The notes below the pieces were generated by a model. It had not been told where the DNA came from, made no database searches, and saw nothing but the letters and a program-made list of their open reading frames with translations. Below are positions 3,001-23,213 of a stretch of DNA of 39,282 bases, in pieces. Source of the stretch: a plasmid; sequence record NZ_CP023006.1, one strand, 5' to 3'. A program made the translations under genes and the position numbers. Numbering within the stretch: the stretch's first letter is position 1; each line of letters opens with the position of its first letter.

Positions 3001-4232
3001 AACGTCTTTATATTGGTCTGGAAGATCAAATACCTGAGTCAAATGAACGTTTGACTCATATCTTAGAAAAACAGATTTATGGTTTTGCTCCAAGCAATAT
3101 TATTTATAGCATTGCAAAGAACTTTGTTTTTTCACCCTTTCCAAATTTAGATAATTCACATTTAAAACAGTTAGATATGATTCCTTATGCCAAAAGAGAG
3201 AAGAGGCTGGATATGAAATTTGACGTAGTGGTGGGAAATCCACCTTATCAGGAAACAGCAAATGGTAAAAGTACTAAAGACGTTCCAGTTTATAATTACT
3301 TTTATGATTTAGCAGAAAGAGTTTCAACAAAATATATTTTAATTTCTCCAGCTCGTTTCTTATTTAATGCCGGCAGTACCGATAAAAAATGGAATAAGAA
3401 GATGCTTTCAAATAAACATATAAAGGTTGTTTTTTATGAGCAAGATGCAGCAAAGATTTTTCCAAATACCGATATTAAGGGTGGGATTGCTATCCTATAT
3501 AGAAATAAAGATAAAGATTTCGGAAACATTGGATTGTTTACTCCTTTTGAAGAATTAGATTCCATCTCTAATAAAGTATCTAAGTTGACATATCGGACAC
3601 TAGACGAAATTATTTCTAATCGTGGTCAATATAGATTTTCAGATTTAATTTACAAAGAATATCCGAATGATATGAAGAAAATTTCAGACAGAAGAATCGC
3701 TTCTAACGCGTTTAATAACCTCCCAAATTTATTTACAGAAAAAGAACCACACAATAAGTTCAATTATATAAGGATATTAGGTCGTTTAGACAATCAACGC
3801 ATTTATAGGTGGTTTAGGCGCGATTATTTACAAGAACCCATAACTTTTGAAAAATGGAAAATAATACTACCTAAAGCTAATGGAAGTGGGGCAATTGGAG
3901 AAGTATTAAGTACACCCCTAATCGGTAAACCCCTAATCGGGTTTACCGAGACTTTTATTTCAATTGGTGTTTTTGATAATAAGTTAGAAGCTCAAAATGC
4001 TCTAAAATATGTCCAAAGTAAATTTGCACGAACTATGCTGGGAATTTTAAAAATTACACAGGACAATCCAAAGGATAAGTGGTCAAAGGTTCCTCTTCAA
4101 GACTTCACACAAAATTCAGATATAGATTGGACTAAGTCAATATCTGATATTGATCAGCAACTTTATAAAAAATATGGACTAAATCAAAAAGAAATTAATT
4201 TTATTGAAAATAAAGTTAAATCAATGAATTAA
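1..4232 (+). CDS. Large multidomain protein, copy A: T5orf172/GIY-YIG-like N-domain + SF2 DExH helicase + coiled coil + gamma-class N6-adenine DNA methyltransferase + TRD-like C-terminus. 5'-partial at the window edge; the start codon G lies at base 39282.
   Basis: In frame from base 3 (aaa aat cag = KNQ), identical to the 1410-aa ORFs at 13094 and 26188. The six-frame track shows only the 252..4232 portion because the window boundary cuts the start codon. Confidence 0.9.
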   Translation, partial: KNQPAINTTKIVYPQIYAYTLPTEKEDLGWIKIGYTERKNVDDRIKEQTHTAAIRLTYSKLWSEPAKFAKNEGWFKDKQFHSYLRRYKKVSQRQGTEWFYYDGHPQKSHQDFMDFRNNQKSQIKEQLTYQLRPEQVAAVHQTLDYAHNHPNSEFLWNAKPRFGKTLTTYDLARKLDAKTVLVVTNRPAVANSWFDDFEKFISWQTSYAFISTNDTLKDRPVLTIDEFNNEPFSGSKKDKMITFISLQDLKGAISFGGNYDKLKWVKDSHWDLLVIDESHEGVDTFKTDIAFNNINRDFTLNLSGTPFKAVASGKFKQNQIYNWTYADEQQAKANWHDSEKNNPYRSLPKLNLFSYQMSPMITDEVNQGAQINGDNIDYAFDLNEFFATNQNGHFIHEMDIKKWLDTLTHNEKYPFSTKELRNKLKHTFWLLNRVASAKALEKLLKEHPVFKDYEIILAAGDGHGFDDDQTINEKSLDKVKREIKKNDKTITLSVGQLTTGVTIPEWTAVLVLSNLKSPSQYMQAAFRAQNPWEHMVNGQVYQKENAYVFDFAPERTLTIYDEFANDLSKQTSNGNGTTKDREKNIGRLLNFFPVIAEDKQGKMVELNVNQVLTIPRAIKAQEVVRRGFMSNLLFANISGIFASAGAREILEQLNPVDTGKKVSHKTEKKIDTRNVKVNDKGEVEVNPEIVVAKTSAHFGEKVYGDITDKIEQASNQDINLVKLTSDTFKKKTLAAAKNIAKENGLTATTAEHIIQQHSNFLAREVQVIQKQKNIKEAQNKVDLKQAIEKSQDNPEEIAKAQTAFENRKQQIERGYKEKLTKKVADQTKQLTNQTTETLLKKAEEKKKNTVEDDIRARLRGFARTIPSFLMAYGASTTELANFDQNIKGDVFKEVTGITLDQFRSLRDTYHFFDETTFNESVQEFLRKRSQLANYFDESQDEDIFDYVPAQKTNQIFTPKRVVKLMLDKLEEEEPNIFKDKNKTFVDLYVKSGLYLTEIIKRLYIGLEDQIPESNERLTHILEKQIYGFAPSNIIYSIAKNFVFSPFPNLDNSHLKQLDMIPYAKREKRLDMKFDVVVGNPPYQETANGKSTKDVPVYNYFYDLAERVSTKYILISPARFLFNAGSTDKKWNKKMLSNKHIKVVFYEQDAAKIFPNTDIKGGIAILYRNKDKDFGNIGLFTPFEELDSISNKVSKLTYRTLDEIISNRGQYRFSDLIYKEYPNDMKKISDRRIASNAFNNLPNLFTEKEPHNKFNYIRILGRLDNQRIYRWFRRDYLQEPITFEKWKIILPKANGSGAIGEVLSTPLIGKPLIGFTETFISIGVFDNKLEAQNALKYVQSKFARTMLGILKITQDNPKDKWSKVPLQDFTQNSDIDWTKSISDIDQQLYKKYGLNQKEINFIENKVKSMN

Positions 4233-4252: not shown

Positions 4253-5230
4253 ATGAACTTTACAGAGAAAAAATTAAAGTCTTTCTCGATGCCACTCAGT
4301 GATACAGAAGATCAAAAATGTAAGCATGCTATTCAAGAAGTTAGAAATTCTATGGCTAACTTGGGATTTGAGGAGTCTTCTAATGGAATAACTCGTGTAT
4401 TTGACAATACTAGTTCCTATCAAACATTCATGAAAAATAATGAATCGGGCGAAAAAATCAAAATTTTTCTCCAGGGATCCTATGCAAATAATACTAATAT
4501 CAAAGCAGAAAGTGACGTTGATGTTGCTATAGTAAGAGAAGAAATTTTTAACACACTTTTTCGTAGTGAAGGAGTATACCCTCAAAATAATGAAACGTTT
4601 GGATTTTATAATGTACCACAAAAGCCAATAACATTTAAAGATCGTGTAGACACATGCTTAAGAGCTAGCTTTCACGAGCAAGTAATAAGACATAATAAGT
4701 CAATTAGGGTTTTGGGAAATAGTTACAGAAAAAATGCTGACACAGTCCCAGCTAATCGTTACAGAAACTATCAAGGAAACTATTCAAATGATCCTGAAGA
4801 CTATGTTGGAGGGATAATAATTAAACCAGATTATGGAACTTCTATAATTAATTATCCAGAACAACATATACGCATGGGAAGGCAGAAAAACATAGCAACA
4901 AATCATTTTTATAAAAAACAAGTTAGAATAATGAAAAGCATTAAAAACTTAATGACTGATGAGGGATATACATCCGCACAAAAAATGTCATCTTTTGGTT
5001 TGGAGTCATTAACTTGGAATATACCTGATAACATTTTCACTAAATATGACCAGCTAAGATTTGTTTTCGATGATATTGTTATCTATTTGACCGACCATGC
5101 AGATAATGTAGCTAACTTTAAAGAGGCAAATGGTATAAAAAGACTTTGTAATGATGAAAATCAAGTTACGGATTATCTAAACTTTATTTCGGATTTAAAA
5201 TCATTCTATGAATTTGAAATAGGAGATTAG
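4253..5230 (+). CDS. cGAS/DncV-like nucleotidyltransferase (SMODS / CD-NTase-like), 325 aa
   Basis: RBS AAGGAGG 7 nt upstream of the ATG. Motifs: Q74-G75-S76 (hQGS) then 11 residues then S87-D88-V-D90-V, i.e. the GS-x9-13-[DE]h[DE]h pol-beta NTase signature. Third carboxylate in A-D163-T-V-P-A (hDhVPA-type). The size and an inferred helical C-terminal half fit CD-NTase/SMODS and not a 100-140-aa MNT antitoxin. Confidence 0.75.
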   Translation: MNFTEKKLKSFSMPLSDTEDQKCKHAIQEVRNSMANLGFEESSNGITRVFDNTSSYQTFMKNNESGEKIKIFLQGSYANNTNIKAESDVDVAIVREEIFNTLFRSEGVYPQNNETFGFYNVPQKPITFKDRVDTCLRASFHEQVIRHNKSIRVLGNSYRKNADTVPANRYRNYQGNYSNDPEDYVGGIIIKPDYGTSIINYPEQHIRMGRQKNIATNHFYKKQVRIMKSIKNLMTDEGYTSAQKMSSFGLESLTWNIPDNIFTKYDQLRFVFDDIVIYLTDHADNVANFKEANGIKRLCNDENQVTDYLNFISDLKSFYEFEIGD

Positions 5231-8078: not shown

Positions 8079-8365
8079 TATTTAAACTGGCCCCAATAAT
8101 CATCATCTGATTCAACAATTTCATCGTCAGGTAAAACATGGCGTTTAATTAACTGATCACGTGCAATTGCATATTCTAACGAACCTTCTTTAGCTTTTAA
8201 TGCTCTTTCTAGCCACTCCATTTTTTCTTGTGAAACAATGGCTACTGCGCGACTATTTGAACGAGCAATATAAACGGTTTCGTCTTCGTCATTAACTTGA
8301 TCTAAATATTTTTTTAGGTTAGCGCGAAAATCGCTCTGTGTTAATGCTAATGTCATATTTACCAC
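8078..8365 (-). CDS. Phd/YefM-family antitoxin, 95 aa
   Basis: N-terminal pattern TQSDFRANLKKYLDQV...ETVYIARSN.RAVAIVSQE is typical of Phd/YefM. Acidic C-terminal tail (DDEIVESDDDYW). Translationally coupled to the downstream toxin. Confidence 0.75.
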   Translation of the reverse strand: MVNMTLALTQSDFRANLKKYLDQVNDEDETVYIARSNSRAVAIVSQEKMEWLERALKAKEGSLEYAIARDQLIKRHVLPDDEIVESDDDYWGQFK

Positions 8366-10119: not shown

Positions 10120-10345
10120 GTGCCTCTTATATACCTCTTTTATAAACCTCTTTTAAACCTCTTTTAGACCCCTCTTGAGCCTTACTCTCCCAAGGCTCAC
10201 AGAAGGTTATCAAGTACCTTTTGTCTGTTTATCAAGTACCTTTTGTCTGTTTATCAAGTACCTTTTGTCTGTTTATCAAGTACCTTTTGTCTGTTTATCA
10301 AGTACCTTTATAAGTTCTGTACTTGATAAAAAGGTACTTTTATTT
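10120..10345. repeat. Theta-replication origin: five about-12-bp direct repeats (wACCTCTTTTA) followed by 4.5 x 22-bp iterons (tatcaagtaccttttgtctgtt) and an inverted partial iteron overlapping the repB promoter
   Basis: CCTCTT at 10123, 10134, 10147, 10158 and 10171 (11/13-bp spacing). Iterons at 10208, 10230, 10252 and 10274 (full), with a partial fifth at 10296. Inverted copy ttgataaaaaggtactt at 10323-10339 overlaps -35 TTGATA (10323-10328), 17-nt spacer, -10 TAATAT (10346-10351). Confidence 0.85.
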
Positions 10346-10369
10346 TAATATGTGTTTGAGGTGATAATC

Positions 10370-11305
10370 ATGTCTAATGAGTTAGTTAAGTATGATCCTG
10401 AGTTGAATACTATTCCCTTGAGAAAATTTACCCCAATTGAGATGAATTTATTTTTTTCAATTGTTTCCCGCATGCGGGATCAAGGGAATAAAACTGTTCG
10501 TTTCTCTTTTGACCAGTTAAAAGAGCTTAGTAACTATAAACCAACCGCAAATAAACGTTTTATTGATGATATTGAAAATACATACCAAAAGATCCTCAGC
10601 CTTAGGTTTGGCCGTAGAAGTAAGAGTGGCTTAAATCGTGAATTTTTTGTTATGTTTACTGAATTTGAAATTAAAGGTGAAGCTGAAGAACCTTATGTTG
10701 ATATTCAGGTTTATCCCAAAGCATTGCACTTGCTAAACGATTTAGAAAGTTGGGTTCGTTATGCCCTAACAGAATTTAGAAATTTAAAAAGCAGTTACGC
10801 TAAAACAATGTTTCGTCTAATTAAGCAATTTCGAACTACTGGCTATTCTTATTTCTCTAAAGAAGATTTTTTTGAATTGCTTGATATACCTAAAAGTTAT
10901 TGGAATAGTCCTTCAAATGTTGACAAAAAGGTTATTAAGCCAATTAGAGAAGAATTAACCCCGCTTTTTAGAGGGCTAACGATTAGAAAAAAATATGGTA
11001 AAGGCAGAGGAAAACCAGTTATCGGTTATTCTTTTACTTGGAAACCTGAAAGCAAGGACGCAAATGATTTTTCTCAAGGCAAATTTCAAGATGAGCGTCA
11101 AAAACTCTTTAACATTCAACACAATGATGAATTATCAGATAAAGAAAAGTGGCGTGCAATTGACAAAGTTAAATGCTTGCCTTTAGGAACAACTGAAAAA
11201 CAGGTACTGGCTGAAAAACAAGCTGAACATGATCAAAAAATCAGAGATCAAGCAAGACAAGAAGCACTTGCTGAACTCCGAAAGGGGCTTGGAAATAATG
11301 CCTAA
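10370..11305 (+). CDS. repB: Replication initiator protein RepB (Rep_3-family, iteron-binding)
   Basis: Immediately downstream of iterons. RBS GAGGTGA 5 nt before ATG 10370 (the tool's GTG at 10352 lacks an RBS). The N-terminus MSNELVKYDPELNTIPLRKFTPIEMNLFFSIVSRM fits the Rep_3 pattern (vvk.n.Lnt....ls..E..l....is.i). Confidence 0.85.
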   Translation: MSNELVKYDPELNTIPLRKFTPIEMNLFFSIVSRMRDQGNKTVRFSFDQLKELSNYKPTANKRFIDDIENTYQKILSLRFGRRSKSGLNREFFVMFTEFEIKGEAEEPYVDIQVYPKALHLLNDLESWVRYALTEFRNLKSSYAKTMFRLIKQFRTTGYSYFSKEDFFELLDIPKSYWNSPSNVDKKVIKPIREELTPLFRGLTIRKKYGKGRGKPVIGYSFTWKPESKDANDFSQGKFQDERQKLFNIQHNDELSDKEKWRAIDKVKCLPLGTTEKQVLAEKQAEHDQKIRDQARQEALAELRKGLGNNA

Positions 11306-11390
11306 AACAATTAGAGAACTTGCTGATGAATTTGGTGTATCAAAACAAGCCATTAGGGAAAAAATAGATGCAAACTTTAGTTGTTGTTAA
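11298..11390 (+). CDS. Mini-ORF (30 aa) overlapping the repB stop; HTH-like, truncated paralog of the N-terminus of the downstream 187-aa protein (orfX remnant?)
   Basis: ATG inside aATGcc overlaps the repB end. MPKTIRELADEFGVSKQAIREKIDANFSCC* versus (M)GKTIRQLSEELKLSKQGINQRINSING at 11588. Confidence 0.35.
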   Translation: MPKTIRELADEFGVSKQAIREKIDANFSCC

Positions 11391-11483
11391 TTCGGGATAT
11401 TTGCTGTTAAAGCAACATTCATTGGTGGCAACAACCAGAACCAAATCAATTATATTTTAGCTTGAAGATTGATACCTAGTTTA

Positions 11484-11560
11484 AAAAACGACAAGAACGA
11501 CAACCAAGTTTAAGCTTTGCTTGTCGATTGGTGTTCTTGTCGTTTTTAACTTATAATTTA
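11484..11560. promoter_or_regulatory. Long inverted repeat (15-bp arms aaaaacgacaagaac / gttcttgtcgttttt) followed by -10 TATAAT; candidate operator-promoter of the downstream five-gene operon, or the repB terminator
   Basis: Arms at 11484-11498 and 11533-11547 enclose about 34 nt with further partial pairing. TATAAT at 11552-11557. Possible -35 TTGgtg at 11528-11533 lies inside the right arm. Confidence 0.5.
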
Positions 11561-11575
11561 AGGCGGATTAATTAG

Positions 11576-12139
11576 GTGGTGAAACTATTGGGCAAGACTA
11601 TTCGACAACTTTCAGAAGAATTGAAATTATCAAAACAAGGTATTAATCAACGTATTAATAGTATTAATGGCTTTCGAAGCAAACACACTTATAAAGTCAA
11701 AAACCATCTAGAAATAGACAACCAAGGCGTTAAAATGCTTGCTAATTTCGACAAGCAAAAACGACAAGAACGACAACCAAATCGGCAAGCTGAAAACGAC
11801 AAGGACAAAAATATTGATCATATCTTGCTAAAACAACTTGATGTTAAAGATCAACAAATTTCCAAATTACAAAAGTCCTTGGATCAGCAGCAACAACTAC
11901 AGTTAGCGACACTTGCCGAAAATCGTCAACTAAAGAACCATATTCAAGAATTGAGTGGTCTTCTTGAATCTTCTAATTCAATTCAAAAACGACAAGTAAC
12001 CAAGAAAAATGACAACTTTCCGAACAATGATAATTCCAGTCATATCAAGGATAAAAATGGTGTTGTCGGTACTGATGAAAAACAAAAGAAAATACATAAA
12101 AATAAAACCAATAAGAGTTGGTGGCATTTTTGGAAATAA
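11576..12139 (+). CDS. OrfX-like replication-associated/regulatory protein: N-terminal HTH + Q-rich coiled coil, 187 aa (true start possibly TTG 11588)
   Basis: AGGTGG at 11574-11579, then TTG at 11588 giving MGKTIRQLSEELKLSKQGINQRI (HTH-like; the same motif as the mini-ORF). The central region is Q/K/E-rich and predicted coiled coil. Confidence 0.65.
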   Translation: MVKLLGKTIRQLSEELKLSKQGINQRINSINGFRSKHTYKVKNHLEIDNQGVKMLANFDKQKRQERQPNRQAENDKDKNIDHILLKQLDVKDQQISKLQKSLDQQQQLQLATLAENRQLKNHIQELSGLLESSNSIQKRQVTKKNDNFPNNDNSSHIKDKNGVVGTDEKQKKIHKNKTNKSWWHFWK

Positions 12140-12176
12140 ATTTCAGAGCAGTTATCAAAACTTTGGAGGGGTATCC

Positions 12177-13091
12177 TTGAAAGAAGACCACAAACAATCA
12201 AGCGAGAATCTGAGCTCTAACGATATTCATGAAAATATAATAAGAAAATATATGCCTGATATTCTGAATATTTTACTTATTGATAGAACAACAAGCACAG
12301 CTAATGGTACTCATAATATAATTTGGGCAAATAAGAATTATCTAAAGTATGATTCCAAAAGATATGCTATGACAGCGGAAATCAAGCCCGAACTAATCAC
12401 GGGACTTATGGAAGGCATTATTCGTCCAAGAGCGTTAAAAACTAAAGAGATTCAAAAAAGACGGACTAAATCGAAAGCCGAGGTTTTTACACCAACTTGG
12501 ATAGTAAAAAAACAGAATGATGAAGTTGACAATGATTTTGCCAACGATGATTTAGAAACTTACGTAAAGCGAACCTGGCTTGAGATTACTTGCGGGGAAG
12601 CTCCTTATATGACAACTAGATATGATATGGACACCGGGAAAACTATTCCTATTGCTAAGCGTGTTGGATTCATTGATCGAAAGCTAGCTCGCATCAATAA
12701 GGAAGTTGACGGTAAATTGGAATGGCAACGGCTGGTTGAAGAATCTTATAAATCCAGCTATGGTTTTGAATGGAATGGGGATTCACTGCTATTAGCGCGT
12801 GAAAACTTGCTTTATACTTACCGTGATAATTTTTTGATTAAGTGGCATACAGAGCCAACTCTAATTTTGCTTAGATCAATTGCTAAAATCATTAGTTACA
12901 ATGTTTTTCAAATGGATGGCTTAAAATATACAATTCCTTTGACTGAAAGAAAAGAAAAAAAGATTGATCCACAAATGTCATTGTTTGAAGATTATAGTGA
13001 TGAGAAGTGGATAGTTAAGCCTGGAAAACGTGTAAAAATAATGAATTGGGAAAAAAATAAAATGGAATTTTTTGATCAAGGAGTGAAATAA
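12177..13091 (+). CDS. Hypothetical protein, 304 aa, translationally coupled to the large helicase-methyltransferase gene
   Basis: Strong RBS GGAGGGG 6 nt before TTG 12177. The tool's longer ORF from 12009 would overlap the upstream gene by 130 nt. The stop TAA at 13089-13091 is 2 nt before the GTG of the next gene. It contains EVFTPTWIV and ITCGEAPY segments loosely reminiscent of MTase motifs X and I, but has no NPPY. Confidence 0.6.
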   Translation: MKEDHKQSSENLSSNDIHENIIRKYMPDILNILLIDRTTSTANGTHNIIWANKNYLKYDSKRYAMTAEIKPELITGLMEGIIRPRALKTKEIQKRRTKSKAEVFTPTWIVKKQNDEVDNDFANDDLETYVKRTWLEITCGEAPYMTTRYDMDTGKTIPIAKRVGFIDRKLARINKEVDGKLEWQRLVEESYKSSYGFEWNGDSLLLARENLLYTYRDNFLIKWHTEPTLILLRSIAKIISYNVFQMDGLKYTIPLTERKEKKIDPQMSLFEDYSDEKWIVKPGKRVKIMNWEKNKMEFFDQGVK

Positions 13092-13093
13092 GT

Positions 13094-16000
13094 GTGAAAA
13101 ATCAGCCCGCTATTAATACAACAAAAATAGTATACCCACAAATATACGCTTATACGTTACCAACCGAGAAAGAAGATTTAGGGTGGATTAAAATTGGTTA
13201 CACTGAACGTAAAAATGTTGATGATCGTATCAAAGAACAGACACATACGGCTGCCATTCGTTTAACATATTCCAAATTATGGTCAGAACCAGCCAAGTTT
13301 GCTAAAAATGAGGGTTGGTTTAAAGATAAGCAATTTCATTCCTATTTGCGTCGTTATAAGAAAGTTAGTCAGCGTCAAGGAACTGAATGGTTCTATTATG
13401 ATGGTCATCCGCAAAAATCACATCAAGATTTCATGGATTTTCGTAACAACCAGAAATCTCAAATTAAAGAACAGCTGACTTATCAGCTAAGACCTGAGCA
13501 AGTTGCAGCAGTTCACCAAACGTTAGATTATGCCCATAATCATCCTAATAGCGAATTCTTGTGGAACGCAAAACCACGGTTTGGAAAAACTTTAACTACA
13601 TATGATTTAGCTAGAAAATTAGATGCTAAAACTGTTTTAGTTGTGACTAATCGTCCTGCGGTTGCTAACTCTTGGTTTGATGATTTTGAAAAATTTATTT
13701 CTTGGCAAACTAGTTACGCTTTTATTTCGACTAATGATACTTTAAAAGATCGTCCAGTTTTAACAATAGACGAATTTAATAATGAACCATTTAGTGGCAG
13801 TAAAAAAGACAAAATGATTACCTTTATTTCCTTACAAGATTTGAAGGGAGCAATTTCATTTGGTGGTAACTATGACAAGCTCAAATGGGTTAAAGATTCA
13901 CATTGGGATTTACTAGTTATTGATGAGAGTCATGAGGGAGTAGATACTTTTAAAACTGATATTGCTTTCAATAATATTAATCGTGACTTTACTTTAAATT
14001 TATCTGGTACGCCCTTTAAAGCCGTTGCATCAGGAAAATTTAAACAAAATCAAATTTATAATTGGACTTATGCTGACGAACAACAGGCAAAAGCAAATTG
14101 GCATGATTCAGAAAAAAATAATCCTTATAGATCATTACCAAAGCTGAATCTGTTTTCTTATCAGATGAGTCCCATGATCACAGATGAAGTTAATCAAGGA
14201 GCACAAATCAACGGAGATAATATTGACTATGCTTTTGATTTAAATGAATTTTTCGCAACCAACCAAAATGGCCATTTTATTCATGAAATGGATATAAAAA
14301 AATGGTTAGATACCTTAACACATAACGAGAAATATCCATTCTCTACTAAAGAATTAAGGAATAAACTAAAGCATACTTTCTGGCTATTAAATCGTGTTGC
14401 CAGTGCTAAGGCGCTAGAAAAATTATTAAAAGAACATCCAGTTTTTAAAGATTATGAGATTATTTTAGCAGCTGGAGATGGGCATGGTTTTGATGACGAT
14501 CAGACCATTAATGAAAAATCACTTGATAAAGTTAAAAGAGAAATTAAAAAAAATGATAAAACTATAACGTTATCCGTTGGCCAATTGACGACTGGTGTGA
14601 CTATTCCTGAGTGGACAGCCGTATTAGTATTATCTAACCTAAAATCACCCAGCCAATACATGCAAGCGGCATTTCGGGCACAAAATCCGTGGGAACACAT
14701 GGTTAATGGTCAAGTTTATCAAAAAGAAAATGCCTACGTTTTTGACTTTGCCCCTGAACGTACGTTAACTATTTATGATGAATTTGCTAACGATTTATCA
14801 AAACAAACATCAAATGGTAACGGAACGACAAAGGACCGTGAGAAAAATATCGGGAGGTTATTGAACTTTTTCCCTGTAATTGCTGAAGATAAGCAAGGCA
14901 AGATGGTTGAATTAAACGTTAACCAGGTCCTAACTATTCCAAGAGCCATTAAAGCTCAAGAAGTAGTTCGACGTGGTTTTATGTCTAATTTGTTGTTTGC
15001 AAATATATCAGGAATTTTTGCTTCAGCAGGGGCACGAGAAATATTGGAACAATTAAATCCGGTTGACACTGGTAAAAAAGTTTCGCATAAGACTGAAAAG
15101 AAAATCGATACAAGAAATGTCAAAGTCAACGATAAGGGTGAAGTTGAAGTCAATCCAGAAATTGTTGTAGCTAAAACGTCGGCCCATTTTGGTGAGAAAG
15201 TTTACGGCGATATAACTGATAAAATCGAACAAGCGTCAAATCAAGATATCAATTTGGTCAAACTTACTTCAGATACATTCAAGAAAAAAACTTTAGCAGC
15301 AGCAAAGAATATTGCTAAAGAAAATGGTTTGACTGCTACAACAGCAGAACATATTATCCAGCAACATTCAAATTTTTTGGCGCGTGAAGTTCAAGTTATT
15401 CAAAAACAAAAGAATATAAAAGAAGCTCAAAATAAAGTAGATTTAAAGCAAGCTATTGAAAAATCTCAAGATAATCCTGAAGAAATTGCTAAAGCTCAGA
15501 CAGCGTTTGAAAATAGAAAACAACAAATTGAAAGGGGGTATAAAGAAAAATTAACCAAAAAAGTTGCTGATCAGACAAAACAACTAACCAATCAAACAAC
15601 TGAAACCTTGTTAAAAAAGGCAGAAGAAAAGAAGAAAAATACGGTTGAGGATGATATTCGAGCACGTTTGCGTGGCTTTGCTCGCACTATTCCTTCATTT
15701 TTGATGGCTTATGGTGCATCCACTACAGAACTAGCTAATTTTGATCAAAATATAAAAGGTGATGTTTTCAAAGAGGTAACAGGTATCACACTTGATCAGT
15801 TCCGATCCTTACGCGATACGTATCATTTTTTCGATGAAACAACATTTAATGAATCCGTTCAAGAATTTTTAAGAAAAAGATCTCAACTTGCTAATTATTT
15901 TGACGAATCACAAGATGAGGACATTTTTGATTATGTTCCAGCCCAGAAGACCAATCAAATATTTACTCCAAAGAGAGTCGTTAAATTGATGCTTGATAAG

Positions 16001-17326
16001 CTTGAAGAGGAAGAGCCTAACATCTTTAAAGACAAAAACAAAACTTTTGTTGATTTGTACGTTAAATCTGGATTGTATTTAACCGAAATCATCAAACGTC
16101 TTTATATTGGTCTGGAAGATCAAATACCTGAGTCAAATGAACGTTTGACTCATATCTTAGAAAAACAGATTTATGGTTTTGCTCCAAGCAATATTATTTA
16201 TAGCATTGCAAAGAACTTTGTTTTTTCACCCTTTCCAAATTTAGATAATTCACATTTAAAACAGTTAGATATGATTCCTTATGCCAAAAGAGAGAAGAGG
16301 CTGGATATGAAATTTGACGTAGTGGTGGGAAATCCACCTTATCAGGAAACAGCAAATGGTAAAAGTACTAAAGACGTTCCAGTTTATAATTACTTTTATG
16401 ATTTAGCAGAAAGAGTTTCAACAAAATATATTTTAATTTCTCCAGCTCGTTTCTTATTTAATGCCGGCAGTACCGATAAAAAATGGAATAAGAAGATGCT
16501 TTCAAATAAACATATAAAGGTTGTTTTTTATGAGCAAGATGCAGCAAAGATTTTTCCAAATACCGATATTAAGGGTGGGATTGCTATCCTATATAGAAAT
16601 AAAGATAAAGATTTCGGAAACATTGGATTGTTTACTCCTTTTGAAGAATTAGATTCCATCTCTAATAAAGTATCTAAGTTGACATATCGGACACTAGACG
16701 AAATTATTTCTAATCGTGGTCAATATAGATTTTCAGATTTAATTTACAAAGAATATCCGAATGATATGAAGAAAATTTCAGACAGAAGAATCGCTTCTAA
16801 CGCGTTTAATAACCTCCCAAATTTATTTACAGAAAAAGAACCACACAATAAGTTCAATTATATAAGGATATTAGGTCGTTTAGACAATCAACGCATTTAT
16901 AGGTGGTTTAGGCGCGATTATTTACAAGAACCCATAACTTTTGAAAAATGGAAAATAATACTACCTAAAGCTAATGGAAGTGGGGCAATTGGAGAAGTAT
17001 TAAGTACACCCCTAATCGGTAAACCCCTAATCGGGTTTACCGAGACTTTTATTTCAATTGGTGTTTTTGATAATAAGTTAGAAGCTCAAAATGCTCTAAA
17101 ATATGTCCAAAGTAAATTTGCACGAACTATGCTGGGAATTTTAAAAATTACACAGGACAATCCAAAGGATAAGTGGTCAAAGGTTCCTCTTCAAGACTTC
17201 ACACAAAATTCAGATATAGATTGGACTAAGTCAATATCTGATATTGATCAGCAACTTTATAAAAAATATGGACTAAATCAAAAAGAAATTAATTTTATTG
17301 AAAATAAAGTTAAATCAATGAATTAA
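13094..17326 (+). CDS. Large multidomain protein, 1410 aa: T5orf172 (GIY-YIG superfamily) domain + SF2 DExH helicase + K/E-rich coiled coil + gamma-class N6-adenine MTase (NPPY) + TRD-like C-terminus; Type ISP-RM-like architecture
   Basis: GTG start with AAGGAG 11 nt upstream. aa 14-60 IVYPQIYAYTL..GWIKIGYTERKNVDDRIKEQ (T5orf172-like). Helicase motif I AKPRFGKT (aa 160-166), II VIDESH (aa 275-280), III LSGTPF, VI-like QAAFRAQN (aa 524-531). MTase motif X IFTPKRVVKLML (F957), motif IV FDVVVGNPPYQ (N1080-Y1083). Eco57I/TaqI-like post-NPPY region (YFYDLAERVSTKYILISPARFL) and C-terminal YKKYGLNQKEINFIE helix. Confidence 0.85.
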   Translation: MKNQPAINTTKIVYPQIYAYTLPTEKEDLGWIKIGYTERKNVDDRIKEQTHTAAIRLTYSKLWSEPAKFAKNEGWFKDKQFHSYLRRYKKVSQRQGTEWFYYDGHPQKSHQDFMDFRNNQKSQIKEQLTYQLRPEQVAAVHQTLDYAHNHPNSEFLWNAKPRFGKTLTTYDLARKLDAKTVLVVTNRPAVANSWFDDFEKFISWQTSYAFISTNDTLKDRPVLTIDEFNNEPFSGSKKDKMITFISLQDLKGAISFGGNYDKLKWVKDSHWDLLVIDESHEGVDTFKTDIAFNNINRDFTLNLSGTPFKAVASGKFKQNQIYNWTYADEQQAKANWHDSEKNNPYRSLPKLNLFSYQMSPMITDEVNQGAQINGDNIDYAFDLNEFFATNQNGHFIHEMDIKKWLDTLTHNEKYPFSTKELRNKLKHTFWLLNRVASAKALEKLLKEHPVFKDYEIILAAGDGHGFDDDQTINEKSLDKVKREIKKNDKTITLSVGQLTTGVTIPEWTAVLVLSNLKSPSQYMQAAFRAQNPWEHMVNGQVYQKENAYVFDFAPERTLTIYDEFANDLSKQTSNGNGTTKDREKNIGRLLNFFPVIAEDKQGKMVELNVNQVLTIPRAIKAQEVVRRGFMSNLLFANISGIFASAGAREILEQLNPVDTGKKVSHKTEKKIDTRNVKVNDKGEVEVNPEIVVAKTSAHFGEKVYGDITDKIEQASNQDINLVKLTSDTFKKKTLAAAKNIAKENGLTATTAEHIIQQHSNFLAREVQVIQKQKNIKEAQNKVDLKQAIEKSQDNPEEIAKAQTAFENRKQQIERGYKEKLTKKVADQTKQLTNQTTETLLKKAEEKKKNTVEDDIRARLRGFARTIPSFLMAYGASTTELANFDQNIKGDVFKEVTGITLDQFRSLRDTYHFFDETTFNESVQEFLRKRSQLANYFDESQDEDIFDYVPAQKTNQIFTPKRVVKLMLDKLEEEEPNIFKDKNKTFVDLYVKSGLYLTEIIKRLYIGLEDQIPESNERLTHILEKQIYGFAPSNIIYSIAKNFVFSPFPNLDNSHLKQLDMIPYAKREKRLDMKFDVVVGNPPYQETANGKSTKDVPVYNYFYDLAERVSTKYILISPARFLFNAGSTDKKWNKKMLSNKHIKVVFYEQDAAKIFPNTDIKGGIAILYRNKDKDFGNIGLFTPFEELDSISNKVSKLTYRTLDEIISNRGQYRFSDLIYKEYPNDMKKISDRRIASNAFNNLPNLFTEKEPHNKFNYIRILGRLDNQRIYRWFRRDYLQEPITFEKWKIILPKANGSGAIGEVLSTPLIGKPLIGFTETFISIGVFDNKLEAQNALKYVQSKFARTMLGILKITQDNPKDKWSKVPLQDFTQNSDIDWTKSISDIDQQLYKKYGLNQKEINFIENKVKSMN

Positions 17327-17346
17327 AGGCCAATAAGGAGGAAAAA

Positions 17347-18324
17347 ATGAACTTTACAGAGAAAAAATTAAAGTCTTTCTCGATGCCACTCAGTGATACA
17401 GAAGATCAAAAATGTAAGCATGCTATTCAAGAAGTTAGAAATTCTATGGCTAACTTGGGATTTGAGGAGTCTTCTAATGGAATAACTCGTGTATTTGACA
17501 ATACTAGTTCCTATCAAACATTCATGAAAAATAATGAATCGGGCGAAAAAATCAAAATTTTTCTCCAGGGATCCTATGCAAATAATACTAATATCAAAGC
17601 AGAAAGTGACGTTGATGTTGCTATAGTAAGAGAAGAAATTTTTAACACACTTTTTCGTAGTGAAGGAGTATACCCTCAAAATAATGAAACGTTTGGATTT
17701 TATAATGTACCACAAAAGCCAATAACATTTAAAGATCGTGTAGACACATGCTTAAGAGCTAGCTTTCACGAGCAAGTAATAAGACATAATAAGTCAATTA
17801 GGGTTTTGGGAAATAGTTACAGAAAAAATGCTGACACAGTCCCAGCTAATCGTTACAGAAACTATCAAGGAAACTATTCAAATGATCCTGAAGACTATGT
17901 TGGAGGGATAATAATTAAACCAGATTATGGAACTTCTATAATTAATTATCCAGAACAACATATACGCATGGGAAGGCAGAAAAACATAGCAACAAATCAT
18001 TTTTATAAAAAACAAGTTAGAATAATGAAAAGCATTAAAAACTTAATGACTGATGAGGGATATACATCCGCACAAAAAATGTCATCTTTTGGTTTGGAGT
18101 CATTAACTTGGAATATACCTGATAACATTTTCACTAAATATGACCAGCTAAGATTTGTTTTCGATGATATTGTTATCTATTTGACCGACCATGCAGATAA
18201 TGTAGCTAACTTTAAAGAGGCAAATGGTATAAAAAGACTTTGTAATGATGAAAATCAAGTTACGGATTATCTAAACTTTATTTCGGATTTAAAATCATTC
18301 TATGAATTTGAAATAGGAGATTAG
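17347..18324 (+). CDS. cGAS/DncV-like nucleotidyltransferase (SMODS/CD-NTase-like), copy B
   Basis: Identical to 4253..5230 (+13094). Confidence 0.75.
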   Translation: MNFTEKKLKSFSMPLSDTEDQKCKHAIQEVRNSMANLGFEESSNGITRVFDNTSSYQTFMKNNESGEKIKIFLQGSYANNTNIKAESDVDVAIVREEIFNTLFRSEGVYPQNNETFGFYNVPQKPITFKDRVDTCLRASFHEQVIRHNKSIRVLGNSYRKNADTVPANRYRNYQGNYSNDPEDYVGGIIIKPDYGTSIINYPEQHIRMGRQKNIATNHFYKKQVRIMKSIKNLMTDEGYTSAQKMSSFGLESLTWNIPDNIFTKYDQLRFVFDDIVIYLTDHADNVANFKEANGIKRLCNDENQVTDYLNFISDLKSFYEFEIGD

Positions 18325-18325
18325 A

Positions 18326-18886
18326 ATGAAAAGTGAAGAGAAAGGACTTATTAAATATAGTGTTACTATAGGAATTATTGTTTTTGTTGTTCTTTGTGTT
18401 ACACATAATTTGAATATTAGACTAAATACATTGAAGTCTATTACGGATTACGCGGGAGATTCTATATCTATTAGTGTAATTTTTGCATTTTTTTATGAAA
18501 AATATATTTGGCGTTGGAATCCATTTGAAAAACATCCGAGACTTGCTAAAAAATATTCTGGTTATCTTATTTCAACCTTTGATGATAAAAAAAGAACACT
18601 CGAACTAGACTTGAAACAAACTTTAATGACTTGCAAAGTACATCAAAAAACTGAAGAAAGCGACAGCGATGCAATTAATACAAATATAATAGATATAAAT
18701 GGACGAAGTGCCCTTGTTTACACCTATTTAAATGTTCCAAGGCTAAATGTCCGAGAAAGAAGCCCTATACATTATGGAAGTGCTATTCTTTTTATTAACA
18801 GTCAAGAAAAACTTAATGGAGGATACTTTACTGATAGGAAAACGACCGGTCAGATAACTGCTGAGAAAAAGATTAAACCGATTTAA
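18326..18886 (+). CDS. Two-TM Cap15-like effector, copy B
   Basis: Identical to 5232..5792 (+13094). Confidence 0.6.
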   Translation: MKSEEKGLIKYSVTIGIIVFVVLCVTHNLNIRLNTLKSITDYAGDSISISVIFAFFYEKYIWRWNPFEKHPRLAKKYSGYLISTFDDKKRTLELDLKQTLMTCKVHQKTEESDSDAINTNIIDINGRSALVYTYLNVPRLNVRERSPIHYGSAILFINSQEKLNGGYFTDRKTTGQITAEKKIKPI

Positions 18887-19078
18887 GTAATAACTTATAA
18901 AAAATTCATAATATTTAATTACATTAGGGGCCATAATTAACAAATACCCCCTTGAAAAGACCGATAAAACAGCCCCTAACAAATCAACTTGGTTTGTTAG
19001 GGGCTGTTTTTTAGATTATACTTAAAATAACGCCTATAATGGTTGGATTCTAATGCTTAAAAAAGAGGTGACTAGGTT

Positions 19079-19351
19079 ATGGTGCAATAACTTGTTTTAC
19101 CAATCAAAGATTCTAACGTCCTAACAAGTGTCCAGGAGACGCTGTTGGATAGTTTTCGAGCTGGTCGGCGTAATTACACCATTTTTCAACTGGGTAAAGC
19201 GACCTTACTACGGGTCAGTGATGTCATGCAGCTGAAAAAGGTTGATGTCTTTAACGCCGATGGTACGATTAAGCAAAATACGTTTATCCTCGACCAAAAA
19301 ACGGGTAAAGCTAACACTCTTTATCTCAAACCAGTGCAGACTGTATATTAA
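19079..19351 (+). pseudogene. Tyrosine recombinase pseudogene fragment, copy B
   Basis: Identical to 5985..6257 (+13094). Confidence 0.8.
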
Positions 19352-20337
19352 TCTTTTGGAAATATTTTTTCATTGATAACAACGACTGTTTTTTCGCTAA
19401 TGCCCATTCTATATTCAAATAATAAATCTACTAATTCATCACCATCAACTAAGGTAATTAAATTAGCTCCTTGACGCGATCTACTGACAGCATCATTTGT
19501 ATAGGTAGAAGTCGTTACAAATATCCCTCTGTCTGCATTATGACCACTAATGGTACCAGCAAAATTACTGATATCTGGTCCTGTAACCGGACCTTTTGTA
19601 AATCGCTTAGTTTGTAACACAATTTTATATGTCATCAACTCAGGGGTTCTTAAATAACCTATGCCATCAATGCCACTATCTCCTGTTTTTGAAGTGGTAT
19701 CCATTTTAATGCCTATTTTTCGCATAAGATTTACAATCAATTCTTCAAACTTATATGGATTCATTTCACTCAATCGCTGTAATAATTGATCTCGCCATAA
19801 TTCAGAATCATCTGTTTCTTCTACAATGTCTTCGTCCAGATTGGCAATATTGACATTTGAAGATGATAGTATTTCATCTTTCTTTTTTTGATTATTTAGC
19901 TTCTTTTTTTGCCAAACAGGAGTAGATATTGAGTATACATCGTCCCATACATCAAAGTTATTTATATCAACGTCTTCTCCCATCTGTGTCAAGGCCCATA
20001 CTCCCCACTGTGGTGAATAAAGTAATCCGGCTTTCTTTAAATTAGACATAGACCACTGCAATCTAAAATCTAACTGACTTTGACCATTACTAGACTTTTT
20101 CTCTCTATCTGCATCTGTAAAATAAGGATATTCAACAGCCTTTTCTTTGACAAGAGCAGCTTTAGTTGGCCCCCCATAAGACTGTAATGCTTGTAAAATA
20201 GCCACTACACCAAACTTCTCCATATAGTTCAAGTTTTTATTAGAATTCACGAAGCTGAGCCAATTCTTAGGCATATCAGCTTCCAATTCTGTTATTTTAC
20301 GAGTGATTCCGAAATGATCATACGCTAAATCTACCAT
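19348..20337 (-). CDS. mrr: Mrr-family type IV restriction endonuclease, copy B
   Basis: Identical to 6254..7243 (+13094). Confidence 0.8.
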   Translation of the reverse strand: MVDLAYDHFGITRKITELEADMPKNWLSFVNSNKNLNYMEKFGVVAILQALQSYGGPTKAALVKEKAVEYPYFTDADREKKSSNGQSQLDFRLQWSMSNLKKAGLLYSPQWGVWALTQMGEDVDINNFDVWDDVYSISTPVWQKKKLNNQKKKDEILSSSNVNIANLDEDIVEETDDSELWRDQLLQRLSEMNPYKFEELIVNLMRKIGIKMDTTSKTGDSGIDGIGYLRTPELMTYKIVLQTKRFTKGPVTGPDISNFAGTISGHNADRGIFVTTSTYTNDAVSRSRQGANLITLVDGDELVDLLFEYRMGISEKTVVVINEKIFPKD

Positions 20338-20815
20338 GTTTAATCCATCCTTATAAATTTTATTTTTATTATACACTTACGTTTACAGATTATTTTAATG
20401 TGGTTAAGCTGACACCAGCTTGCCCGACGCGGGTAGCGTTCTGCATGACATGCTCCCGATGAAATCGACCATGCAACGGTAAATTGCCCTGTCACGGCGT
20501 GACCCGCCGGAGGTTTTACGAGCCGGATAATAGGCGCTGTAAAATAGCAGTTTTCCCAGAAGGAAGGGAAAACGCTACTGTAATCGCTTGTCGATTACTT
20601 GCCTCGCAGAGCCTGTCCAAAATATTATTTTGGTATAACAGGCTATACCAGATTTTTAACGGTGTTATACTGGTCTTGGAAAACCTTTTTCGAGGAGGCA
20701 TTTTTGATGGCGCATTTACAAAATCGCCCCTCAAAAATATTGAAAGAATAACCCCTAATATCTATAATGCAGATATTAGGGGTTATTTATTTTCATATTA
20801 TAAAAATGACTTCTT

Positions 20816-21172
20816 CTATTCGTCATTTTTTCGATACCTTTTAGAACGATTTTGACCAGGAAATAAACGATCATGCGATCCGACTCGAATGCCAATTAAG
20901 ACTAGTTCATCTTTATCAATCGTATAAACCACCAGGACATCGTTAGTTTCGCTTGGTGTTTTGTTTTTCGGGGTATCTCGCAAGTGAAATTCATTATAAC
21001 CGCTCATTCGCCGATTAAGCTCATGATCTTCAAATTCTGGTGGTAATTGTTGTTGCTCAAGCAACAGGTCAATGGCTGCTCGAACTTCATTAATAATAGA
21101 TTTGTCTAAACTGGCTAACCGTTTTAGATCAGCATTAAAGGTTGCACGTGGTTTAAATCTTAGTTTTTTCAT
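20816..21172 (-). CDS. RelE/YafQ-like toxin, copy B
   Basis: Identical to 7722..8078 (+13094). Confidence 0.7.
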   Translation of the reverse strand: MKKLRFKPRATFNADLKRLASLDKSIINEVRAAIDLLLEQQQLPPEFEDHELNRRMSGYNEFHLRDTPKNKTPSETNDVLVVYTIDKDELVLIGIRVGSHDRLFPGQNRSKRYRKNDE

Positions 21173-21526: not shown

Positions 21527-22114
21527 ATGCAACAAGTTGTCTTACCCATCAAAGATTCAAACGTTCTCAAAGAGGTGCAAGATACCTTACTCAACAACTT
21601 TAAAGCTGGCCGGCGTAACTATACAGTTTTTCAAGTTGGCAAAGCAACACTGTTGCGAGTCAGTGATGTCATGCGCTTAAAACAAACCGATATTTTTAAT
21701 CCGGACGGTTCTATTAAACAAAATGCGTTTATTCATGACCGAAAAACGGGTAAACCGAATACCTTGTACCTTAAACCTGTTCAAACAGAGCTCTTATTGT
21801 ACCGTCAATGGCTGCTTGATCATAAACTGGATTCTGAATGGCTCTTTCCTTCAATTCAACACCCAGAACGCCATATCACGGAAAAACAGTTCTACAAAAT
21901 TATGAGTAAGGTTGGCGATCTTTTAAGCATTAATTATCTAGGTACTCATACGATGCGCAAAACTGGGGCTTATCGTGTTTACACGCAATCAAATTACAAT
22001 ATTGGTTTAGTCATGCACTTATTAAATCATTCAAGTGAAGCCATGACTTTAGCTTATTTAGGCTTAGACCAAGCCAGTACCGAAACGATGTTAGATCAAA
22101 TTGATTTTGGTTAG
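21527..22114 (+). CDS. Short tyrosine recombinase, copy B
   Basis: Identical to 8433..9020 (+13094). Confidence 0.85.
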   Translation: MQQVVLPIKDSNVLKEVQDTLLNNFKAGRRNYTVFQVGKATLLRVSDVMRLKQTDIFNPDGSIKQNAFIHDRKTGKPNTLYLKPVQTELLLYRQWLLDHKLDSEWLFPSIQHPERHITEKQFYKIMSKVGDLLSINYLGTHTMRKTGAYRVYTQSNYNIGLVMHLLNHSSEAMTLAYLGLDQASTETMLDQIDFG

Positions 22115-22743: not shown

Positions 22744-23213
22744 TCCTCTAAAAGCTCACTGAGGGCTTTTTATTTTTGCTTTGGTGTAAATGTATATGAA
22801 TAGTCTTAAAATCGCTGAGAACAAAAAATAAGGCCCTTAAAAAGTGACATAGCAGTTAAATCTTTATCAAGTTTTAGAAAAGCTAACTGTTTGCTGTCAA
22901 TGGTAGCGGACGAGCAAAGCGTGGGAGCATAAGGAATTGACAGCTCTTAACTAGTCTTAACACTGAATTGGCGAAAGCCAAAGTTTCTATAAAACTTTGC
23001 TTTCCTGCCTAACGGCGAGTGAAAAAGCGGTCAAGCTGGCTCAGCTTGGATGGGGTTCGGGGCGTTAGCGCCCGATTAAATGTGGCTTGCCACACCTTTT
23101 TAGGCAACGAACGAAGTGAGGCGCAAGAAGCGTAGCGACTGGAGTTTAATGTGAGCCGGTTTTTGGCTCACTCCTTTGTGTTTTTTGTTTCTAGATTTTA
23201 ATCTCGTACAGCG

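Follow-up and report, generated by a model that had tools for sequence, protein, structure and literature searches.

Can a restriction-modification (RM)-like enzyme and a system for antiphage signaling based on cyclic oligonucleotides (CBASS) form one defense system when their genes are packed into a single block? The question is raised by plasmid sequence record NZ_CP023006.1, of which we analyzed a stretch of 39,282 nucleotides (nt), here called the window. Five genes follow one another on its plus strand: orfX, a gene for a 304-amino-acid (aa) protein (p304), a gene for a 1410-aa protein (the large gene), and genes for a 325-aa nucleotidyltransferase (NTase) and a 186-aa effector with two transmembrane (2TM) segments. 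A first-pass annotation had read them as a five-gene operon and as a possible composite system in which NTase activation is coupled to restriction, with a very compact defense island as the fallback. A composite of RM and CBASS, if true, would be a new mode of immune signaling; the evidence points away from it. We find it very probable that the block is a compact defense island, made of independent modules that follow one another head to tail behind orfX in the cargo slot of a 13-kb Lactobacillaceae Rep3 theta plasmid.

The five same-strand genes were all confirmed (Table 1), and each is preceded by a Shine-Dalgarno-like sequence. The gaps between them are 37, 2, 20, and 1 nt; the last three agreed with the earlier figures, and the first had been given as 38 nt.

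Linkage of the RM-type pair and CBASS in other genomes

The gene neighborhood of the large gene was surveyed in 80 diverse loci, kept from at least 589 species-level genome hits, with one genome per species and 8-kb flanks. Relatives of the NTase or the effector were found in none of these loci (tblastn at E ≤ 1e-3; phmmer at E ≤ 10 over 6444 open reading frames [ORFs]), which by the rule of three puts adjacency below about 4% of species-level loci. When plasmid records were searched, the large gene was found in 91 and the NTase in 79, and among the matches listed only L. plantarum LZ206p3 was in both. This plasmid carries the window block at 98.5% identity.

The block itself (12158-18979, about 6.8 kb) is at least 98% identical in Pediococcus, Lactiplantibacillus, Latilactobacillus, and many metagenome samples; judged by this identity, it is one recently spread unit among Lactobacillaceae plasmids. 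Linkage of the RM-type pair (p304 and the large gene) with CBASS was limited to such near-identical copies. The first-pass annotation had held that the linkage would be incidental if homologues of the large gene were never found beside NTase/2TM genes in other genomes. None of the 80 loci had such a neighbor, and in place of recurrence in independent lineages, on which the composite claim depended, we found only the near-identical block.

The ORFs downstream of the large gene (n = 107) were heterogeneous, with no family occurring more than four times. Among the tightly following genes on the same strand, 7 of 10 belonged to other defense families (AbiP2 reverse transcriptase, GmrSD/Orf5-like, PDC-S06/LmuB-like, PDC-S11, and AbiD-like), which suggests that a variable defense slot behind this large-gene family is general. 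In seven loci of unrelated bacteria (L013, L016, L017, L029, L031, L036, and L056), such a same-strand defense gene begins 9 to 65 nt after the RM-type pair.

Of the nearest relatives of the CBASS pair (60% aa identity), the one in C. futsaii is separated by 100 nt from a Type I hsdMSR operon in front of it, and the one in L. sakei follows GIY-YIG and abortive infection (Abi) genes at a distance of 42 nt. A serine recombinase gene follows the CBASS relatives in both, which hints at how the cassette moves.

Variable slot 3' of the large gene

Comparison with related plasmids showed that the slot 3' of the large gene does not have a fixed content. In pRS5, LP2025_7, and L. backii pL11991-5, the DUF536-p304-large gene trio is kept and is followed by a toxin-antitoxin pair, with no CBASS. 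The large protein of Oenococcus sicerae is 79% identical, and its gene, too, is followed by a toxin-antitoxin pair and no CBASS.

The L. hilgardii contig (MWIM01000076) is 98.9% identical to the window up to 17346 and resumes at 18815. The RM-type pair is intact in this contig, and the NTase and most of the effector are missing. The deletion corresponds to window positions 17347-18814 and lies at a GGAGGA/AATG microhomology; the scar, at 8205-8260 of the contig, retains an ATG and the last 24 codons of the Cap15-like effector gene. In the L. parakefiri plasmid (NCXI01000056), 95.6% identity extends up to 17320, and KwaB followed by KwaA (Kiwa) is found 3 nt past the stop codon. The Kiwa pair occupies 11237-12433 of that contig, which ends within kwaA.

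The left junction of the CBASS cassette therefore falls within 17321-17346, between the end of homology to the Kiwa-bearing L. parakefiri plasmid and the start of the L. hilgardii deletion. When direct repeats or att-like sites flanking CBASS were sought, the sole result was a pair of 34-nt sequences with 71% identity (17236/18523), which is at chance level. With the slot empty, deleted, or filled by Kiwa in the closest relatives, the fallback reading of a very compact defense island was borne out.

The CBASS pair

The NTase matched the PADLOC CBASS cyclase model PDLC00801 over its full length (4.6e-86), and it matched clade-E CdnE structures in the PDB at 2e-37 to 4e-22 (EfCdnE, 2e-37; RmCdnE, 5e-31). 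Pfam NTP_transf_2 covers aa 62-97, and CD_NTase_C was matched on the orthologues. The catalytic motif is intact in the translation, with QGS (G75-S76) and SDVDV (D88-x-D90). By these matches, the 325-aa protein is a clade-E cGAS/DncV-like nucleotidyltransferase (CD-NTase), or CdnE.

In the 186-aa effector, two hydrophobic TM-like segments at the N terminus precede a cyclic-dinucleotide receptor domain. It matched Pfam Cap15_CD_rec (1.5e-15, aa 71-181), the PADLOC 2TM effector model (8.3e-54), and the PDB Cap15 structure 7n34 (6e-4). The first-pass annotation had described a SMODS/CD-NTase-like NTase with a 2TM effector, and the PADLOC, Pfam, and PDB matches confirm that the pair is CBASS; the profile searches (Pfam and PADLOC) upheld the domain assignments of the block's proteins. 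Apart from one of 123 aa (20484-20855), all plasmid ORFs of at least 80 aa were assigned to other families, with no Cap2/Cap3 or HORMA/TRIP13 genes among them. As predicted from its domains, the pair is a standard minimal two-gene type I CBASS, a new representative of an already known CBASS type.

A CdnE03 and Cap15 pair from S. schleiferi protects S. aureus alone when cloned and is triggered by phage RNA (PMC10686824). A Type I RM system borders the S. schleiferi locus (PMC10686824).

The RM-type pair

The 1410-aa protein comprises a T5orf172/GIY-YIG-like domain (aa 17-102), a Pfam ResIII domain (aa 130-308, with DESH), a long linker, an Eco57I/N6_Mtase region (aa 950-1250; Pfam Eco57I, 3.9e-16; N6_Mtase, 3.3e-09), and a C-terminal target recognition domain (TRD). 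These are the T5orf172, helicase, N6-adenine (N6A) methyltransferase, and TRD domains that had been claimed for it, the first of them at the borderline. The PADLOC model REase_MTase_IIG (2.3e-44) covered only the C-terminal 340 aa. The family holds more than 8000 proteins at E ≤ 1e-20 across phyla, many of them 60 to 70% identical, and the GIY-YIG-like, Walker A, DExH, and NPPY residues are invariant in the family alignment.

Pfam gave no Mrr_cat match in the N terminus of the 1410-aa protein; the Mrr domain of the plasmid is in a separate gene on the opposite strand. LlaBIII, LlaGI, and MmeI were not matched at E ≤ 1 when phmmer and a profile hmmsearch were run against all PDB chains (including 4xqk and 5ffj). 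As far as its sequence goes, the protein is Type ISP-like only in domain order. Of the earlier "Type ISP-like" label, the domain order was retained; no Mrr nuclease and no similarity to LlaGI/LlaBIII at the level of HMMER searches go with it, and a conserved partner gene puts the single-gene nature in question.

The C-terminal part of the protein is exchanged between close relatives. In pRS5, LP2025_7, and L. backii, aa 1086-1410 (16349-17323) are only 22 to 38% identical, against 88 to 99% up to aa 1085, and DNA homology to these plasmids ends at 16344-16356, directly 3' of the NPPY codons. Exchange of the C-terminal methyltransferase half together with the TRD probably alters specificity by module swap.

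The large gene has a conserved partner. p304 adjoins it in 66 of the 80 loci (59 with E < 1e-40), usually immediately upstream and sometimes immediately downstream, and all 16 plasmid records that carry p304 also carry the large gene. With about 8000 homologues, p304 is very widespread; a profile search for wider diversity gave the same clade at 65 to 70% identity. Its names in the databases are inconsistent (MTase_II, restriction endonuclease, and subunit M).

No Pfam domain, methyltransferase domains included, was matched by p304. An AlphaFold2 model from 24 sequences was set aside (predicted local distance difference test score [pLDDT], 48.6), and a 99-sequence alignment was used for the model. 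Fold comparison gave figures of 9.0 for LlaBIII, 7.3 to 7.9 for Type I HsdM proteins, 6.4 for CamA, 6.2 for both BsaXI and PglX, 5.4 for DrdV, and 5.3 for MmeI. In the model, p304 has a gamma-class N6A-methyltransferase-like fold. Motif X is kept (AEVFTP), motif I is degenerate (LEITCGEAPY), the segment after beta-4 reads YGFEWNGDS, and no NPPY-like motif was present in 33 diverse homologues. To judge from these motifs, p304 is probably inactive as a methyltransferase, and its most likely role is that of an accessory subunit with an inactive methyltransferase fold. The residues conserved in p304 are E102, E136, E141, D167, K169, E198, D202, R208, and N210.

Two other lines were followed for p304 and dropped. 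Comparison with the large-protein family by hhalign gave a 20-column match at motif X with a probability of 0.8%, which was rejected as evidence alone. A PD-(D/E)xK reading (RYD...DRK) was rejected on the grounds that D150 is not invariant and that the fold is methyltransferase-like.

Transcription signals

The TATAAT hexamer claimed as a -10 element at 11552 is present (11552-11557), has no acceptable -35 element, and was not listed by the promoter scan. The hairpin just upstream of it would end repB transcripts and so insulate the unit from the repB/truncated-orfX region. At the other end, the block had been said to close with a perfect 18-bp terminator at 18966-19012; it does end at a strong terminator, with a stem of 21 to 22 bp at 18966-19010 (folding free energy [ΔG], -32.3; z, -8.3). 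No regulatory RNA was matched by Rfam within the block.

The CBASS relatives in C. futsaii (4945-5000) and L. sakei (3453-3508) have a conserved leader of about 55 nt with a TATAAT/TGTAAT box, even though the genes in front of it differ between the two. Because this leader with its -10-like box is missing from the window cassette, read-through from upstream is the only evident source of transcription for CBASS. Co-transcription of the block, by read-through from the orfX/RM transcript, is plausible from the arrangement of these signals.

Plasmid backbone and neighboring genes

A 13,094-bp Rep3 circle, present three times in tandem with 0 mismatches between the copies, makes up the window, and the small-plasmid setting first claimed was correct. 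The five-gene block described here sits in copy 2; further copies lie at +13094 and at -13094, the latter truncated by the start of the window. The whole contig in the public record looks like a trimer, whether an assembly artifact of a small plasmid or a real multimer. A database protein identical to the 1410-aa protein is named Pediococcus pentosaceus by its source.

orfX is assigned to the backbone because the homology blocks shared with relatives break at 12158-12170, between orfX and p304. DUF536 is found in plasmids with the same backbone and other cargo, and orfX did not adjoin the large gene in any of the 80 diverse loci. By this comparison, orfX/DUF536 is a replicon backbone gene outside the defense module; of the proposed five-gene unit, the packing stands and the membership of orfX does not. 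The backbone (rep, DUF536, YafQ/Phd, and the small integrase) is common to hundreds of plasmids with unrelated cargo, such as ars, copper, and ABC transporter genes.

Repeats were observed around orfX. A 53-aa ORF at 11229-11390, overlapping the repB end, has a helix-turn-helix segment (MPKTIRELADEFGVSKQAIREKI) resembling the orfX N terminus; it looks like a truncated second copy of orfX, a recombination remnant upstream of the full gene. The 24-nt sequence AAAAACGACAAGAACGACAACCAA is found at 11484-11507, upstream of orfX, and again at 11757-11780, inside orfX, and an inverted copy at 11528-11547 forms the hairpin before the TATAAT. The repeated sequence may have a regulatory or binding role, or it may have been left by recombination.

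A partial duplicate of the 5' part of the integrase gene immediately follows the CBASS terminator, at the right edge of the cargo. This truncated copy is a recombination scar. The Mrr gene is placed between the integrase fragment and the toxin-antitoxin pair. LZ206p3 and the L. hilgardii plasmid lack both the Mrr gene and the integrase fragment, and Mrr is present in L. curvatus; Mrr is a third defense gene, acquired separately.

Two further features lie outside the block. A perfect 17-bp hairpin at 20747-20787, between the Mrr and toxin genes, has the same CCCCTAA core as the 18966-19010 terminator and is likely a bidirectional terminator. The Rfam family Bacillus-plasmid RNA (RF01691) was matched at 22893-22953 on the plus strand, upstream of the replication origin, with 70.7 bits against a gathering score of 31.

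Table 1. Features of the plasmid, in window coordinates
Feature	Position	Strand	Remarks
22-bp iterons	10185-10316		
Rep3 initiator (repB)	10352-11305		
Terminator-like hairpin with U-run	11484-11547	+	Inverted repeat; RNA fold ΔG -28.3, z -5.2
TATAAT, -10-like hexamer	11552-11557	+	Sequence read; sole obvious candidate promoter element of the unit
orfX/DUF536, 187 aa	11576-12139	+	Pfam DUF536, 3.1e-14
p304 (304-aa ORF)	12177-13091	+	TTG start, GGAGG 7 nt upstream
1410-aa ORF	13094-17326	+	
NPPY catalytic motif, aa 1080-1083	16331-16342	+	GNPPYQ invariant in family alignment
Terminator-like hairpin inside the 1410-aa gene	17016-17043	+	11-bp stem, T-rich tail; ΔG -21.7, z -4.4
20-nt junction with AGGAGG ribosome-binding site	17327-17346	+	Left edge of CBASS cassette; no room for a promoter
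NTase (CdnE), 325 aa	17347-18324	+	
Cap15-like 2TM effector, 186 aa	18326-18886	+	
Intrinsic terminator	18966-19010	+	
Truncated integrase copy	19083-19351	+	Direct repeat, 71% identical to 21528-21786; ORF 19145-19351
Mrr-family Type IV restriction endonuclease	19348-20376	-	Pfam Mrr_cat (1.4e-26) and Mrr_N; PADLOC mREase_IV
YafQ/Phd toxin-antitoxin pair		-	
Small site-specific integrase	21527-22114		

Discussion

In the reading that we favor, the first module, p304 with the 1410-aa protein, would be a widespread two-gene ATP-dependent system of the RM type and would act as the first line. The 1410-aa protein would use its TRD to recognize an asymmetric site and its NPPY domain to methylate host adenines. 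On unmodified DNA, the superfamily 2 (SF2) motor would run and the T5orf172/GIY-YIG-like N terminus would cut, with p304, an inactive methyltransferase fold, as an obligatory accessory subunit. The second module would be a self-sufficient type I CBASS, in which CdnE senses infection, by analogy through phage RNA, and synthesizes a cyclic dinucleotide, by which the Cap15-like membrane effector is activated; the resulting membrane disruption would provide abortive infection as a backup. The Mrr Type IV enzyme on the other strand would add a third layer, against modified DNA. The CBASS cassette would have arrived promoterless and most probably depends for its expression on read-through of the orfX/RM transcript; therefore the tight packing would reflect cassette stacking and shared transcription, not shared mechanism.

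Several points weigh against this reading. The restriction activity of the p304/large-protein family is assumed from sequence. The Pfam match to T5orf172 is borderline, with 20.7 bits against a cut-off of 20, and DnmA-YeeB-YeeC, with the same domain set, gave no phage protection in B. subtilis (PMC9973331). The 80-locus survey leaves room for rare co-occurrence (below about 4%). The RM and CBASS block moves as one unit of at least 98% identity across genera, which is compatible with selection for the combination, and enforced co-expression of a cassette that brings no promoter of its own could be adaptive.

The borderline match and the B. subtilis result, together with a p304 that has neither the methyltransferase catalytic motifs nor a recognizable nuclease fold, favor the view that the p304/1410-aa pair is not active restriction. 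It might instead be an epigenetic methyltransferase, a relic (compare DnmA-YeeB-YeeC), or a non-cleaving system like bacteriophage exclusion (BREX), with CBASS and Mrr as the only lethal effectors. However, both proteins are 60 to 70% identical across phyla with the invariant residues described above, the wholesale shuffling of the TRD is typical of RM systems under diversifying selection, and the large-gene family is consistently found among defense genes. Furthermore, homologues of the split system in V. crassostreae are protective, as cited in PMC9973331. We consider a non-restricting pair unlikely.

It is quite unlikely that the NTase and Cap15-like genes are transcribed independently, from a promoter within the 3' end of the 1410-aa gene, with the hairpin at 17016-17043 terminating or attenuating transcripts from upstream. 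Two promoter-like matches (16679-16707, TTGACA-17-AATTAT; and 16921-16949) and the stable hairpin with its T-rich tail would fit such an arrangement. However, the search for an internal promoter found 50 promoter-like matches in the region against 48.8 expected from shuffled controls, which is at chance for AT-rich DNA and agrees with the earlier statement that there is no obvious internal promoter. Both candidates also lie upstream of the hairpin, at which termination would truncate the large-gene mRNA 280 nt before the stop codon. The hairpin itself is coding sequence: it arises from the PLIGKPLIGFT codons, in which the GKP and GFT codons are reverse complementary, and it is probably an incidental by-product. 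The first-pass annotation had seen no internal terminator, and this one terminator-like hairpin corrects it.

Mechanistic coupling, in which restriction events, stalled translocation, or DNA fragments activate or prime CdnE, is highly improbable: the 20-nt and 1-nt gaps, the missing cassette promoter, and the conservation of the 6.8-kb block across genera speak for it, but there is no co-occurrence beyond the single clonal block (0 of 80 loci), natural variants that have lost CBASS or carry Kiwa in its place keep an intact RM pair, relatives of CBASS follow unrelated defense genes, and CdnE with Cap15 is self-sufficient and RNA triggered in staphylococci (PMC10686824). Because of these same findings and the CBASS-less relatives, we regard the RM/CBASS linkage as incidental at the family level. 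We give just as little credence to the idea that, in this Lactobacillaceae lineage, obligatory co-expression goes beyond hitchhiking and the slot 3' of the RM-like gene is a docking site for the exchange of promoterless two-gene Abi cassettes (CBASS in the window, Kiwa in L. parakefiri) that are primed or potentiated by RM-like activity on phage DNA, in a two-tier cross-talk.

Read as a stack of independent modules, the locus is still of use. Near-identical plasmids with CBASS present, deleted at a microhomology, or replaced by Kiwa form a natural series that shows cassette stacking and swapping at the 3' end of an RM-type operon. The L. hilgardii, L. parakefiri, and window plasmids are ready isogenic controls for additivity versus synergy. 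Plasmids of this kind circulate in food-fermentation lactic acid bacteria, in which phage resistance is of practical value. The most interesting by-product is the apparently inactive methyltransferase-like fold predicted for p304. The p304/large-gene pair represents a two-gene kind of Type ISP relative that is very widespread and that has a T5orf172/GIY-YIG-like N terminus and an apparently inactive methyltransferase-fold partner.

Comparison with known systems

The RM-type pair is a widespread, already annotated family that is related to Type ISP in architecture. Like the Type ISP enzymes LlaGI and LlaBIII, the 1410-aa protein joins in one polypeptide a nuclease-like domain, an SF2 ATPase, a linker, a gamma-class N6A methyltransferase (NPPY), and a TRD. 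Both are plasmid borne in lactic acid bacteria, and both exchange TRDs between close relatives (PMC3553950). In contrast to Type ISP, the N terminus is T5orf172/GIY-YIG-like, not Mrr/PD-(D/E)xK, and the conserved second gene, p304, suggests that the system is more than a single polypeptide. That some relatives have a nuclease of another family, GIY-YIG among them, was already pointed out by the Type ISP authors (PMC3553950).

With the Type IIG/IIL enzymes (Eco57I/MmeI-like), the 1410-aa protein has in common the fusion of a TRD to a gamma methyltransferase of the Eco57I type that has NPPY. Those enzymes have an N-terminal PD-(D/E)xK domain and no motor, whereas the 1410-aa protein has a ResIII helicase with Walker A and DESH.

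The DnmA(YeeA)-YeeB-YeeC system likewise links an MmeI-like methyltransferase, a helicase, and T5orf172 in defense islands (PMC9973331), a likeness of domain types and not of directly compared sequences. Its methyltransferase, helicase, and T5orf172 are encoded, in this order, by three genes of their own, whereas the window has one fusion in the order T5orf172, helicase, methyltransferase, plus the p304 partner. A literature search gave no experimentally characterized T5orf172-helicase-methyltransferase fusion, only the work on the split DnmA-YeeB-YeeC system and the remark on GIY-YIG.

The CBASS pair resembles the type I-B CBASS of CdnE and Cap15 (Ssc-CBASS; Cap15 of Duncan-Lowey et al.), a cyclase-then-effector operon. 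The two have in common a clade-E CD-NTase with GS...DxD, a Cap15 receptor domain on a 2TM effector, no Cap2/Cap3 or HORMA/TRIP13, and a flanking RM system. The window CdnE is, however, only moderately similar to the solved CdnE proteins (EfCdnE, 2e-37), and unlike Ssc-CBASS the window pair has no leader or promoter of its own and abuts the stop codon of another gene.

The cargo slots of other Lactobacillaceae Rep3/DUF536 plasmids offer the closest parallel in layout, with the same backbone and with defense genes stacked on one strand. Compared with these, the stacking in the window is unusually tight (20 nt), and in near-identical Lactobacillaceae plasmid backgrounds one and the same slot is filled by CBASS, by Kiwa, or by nothing.

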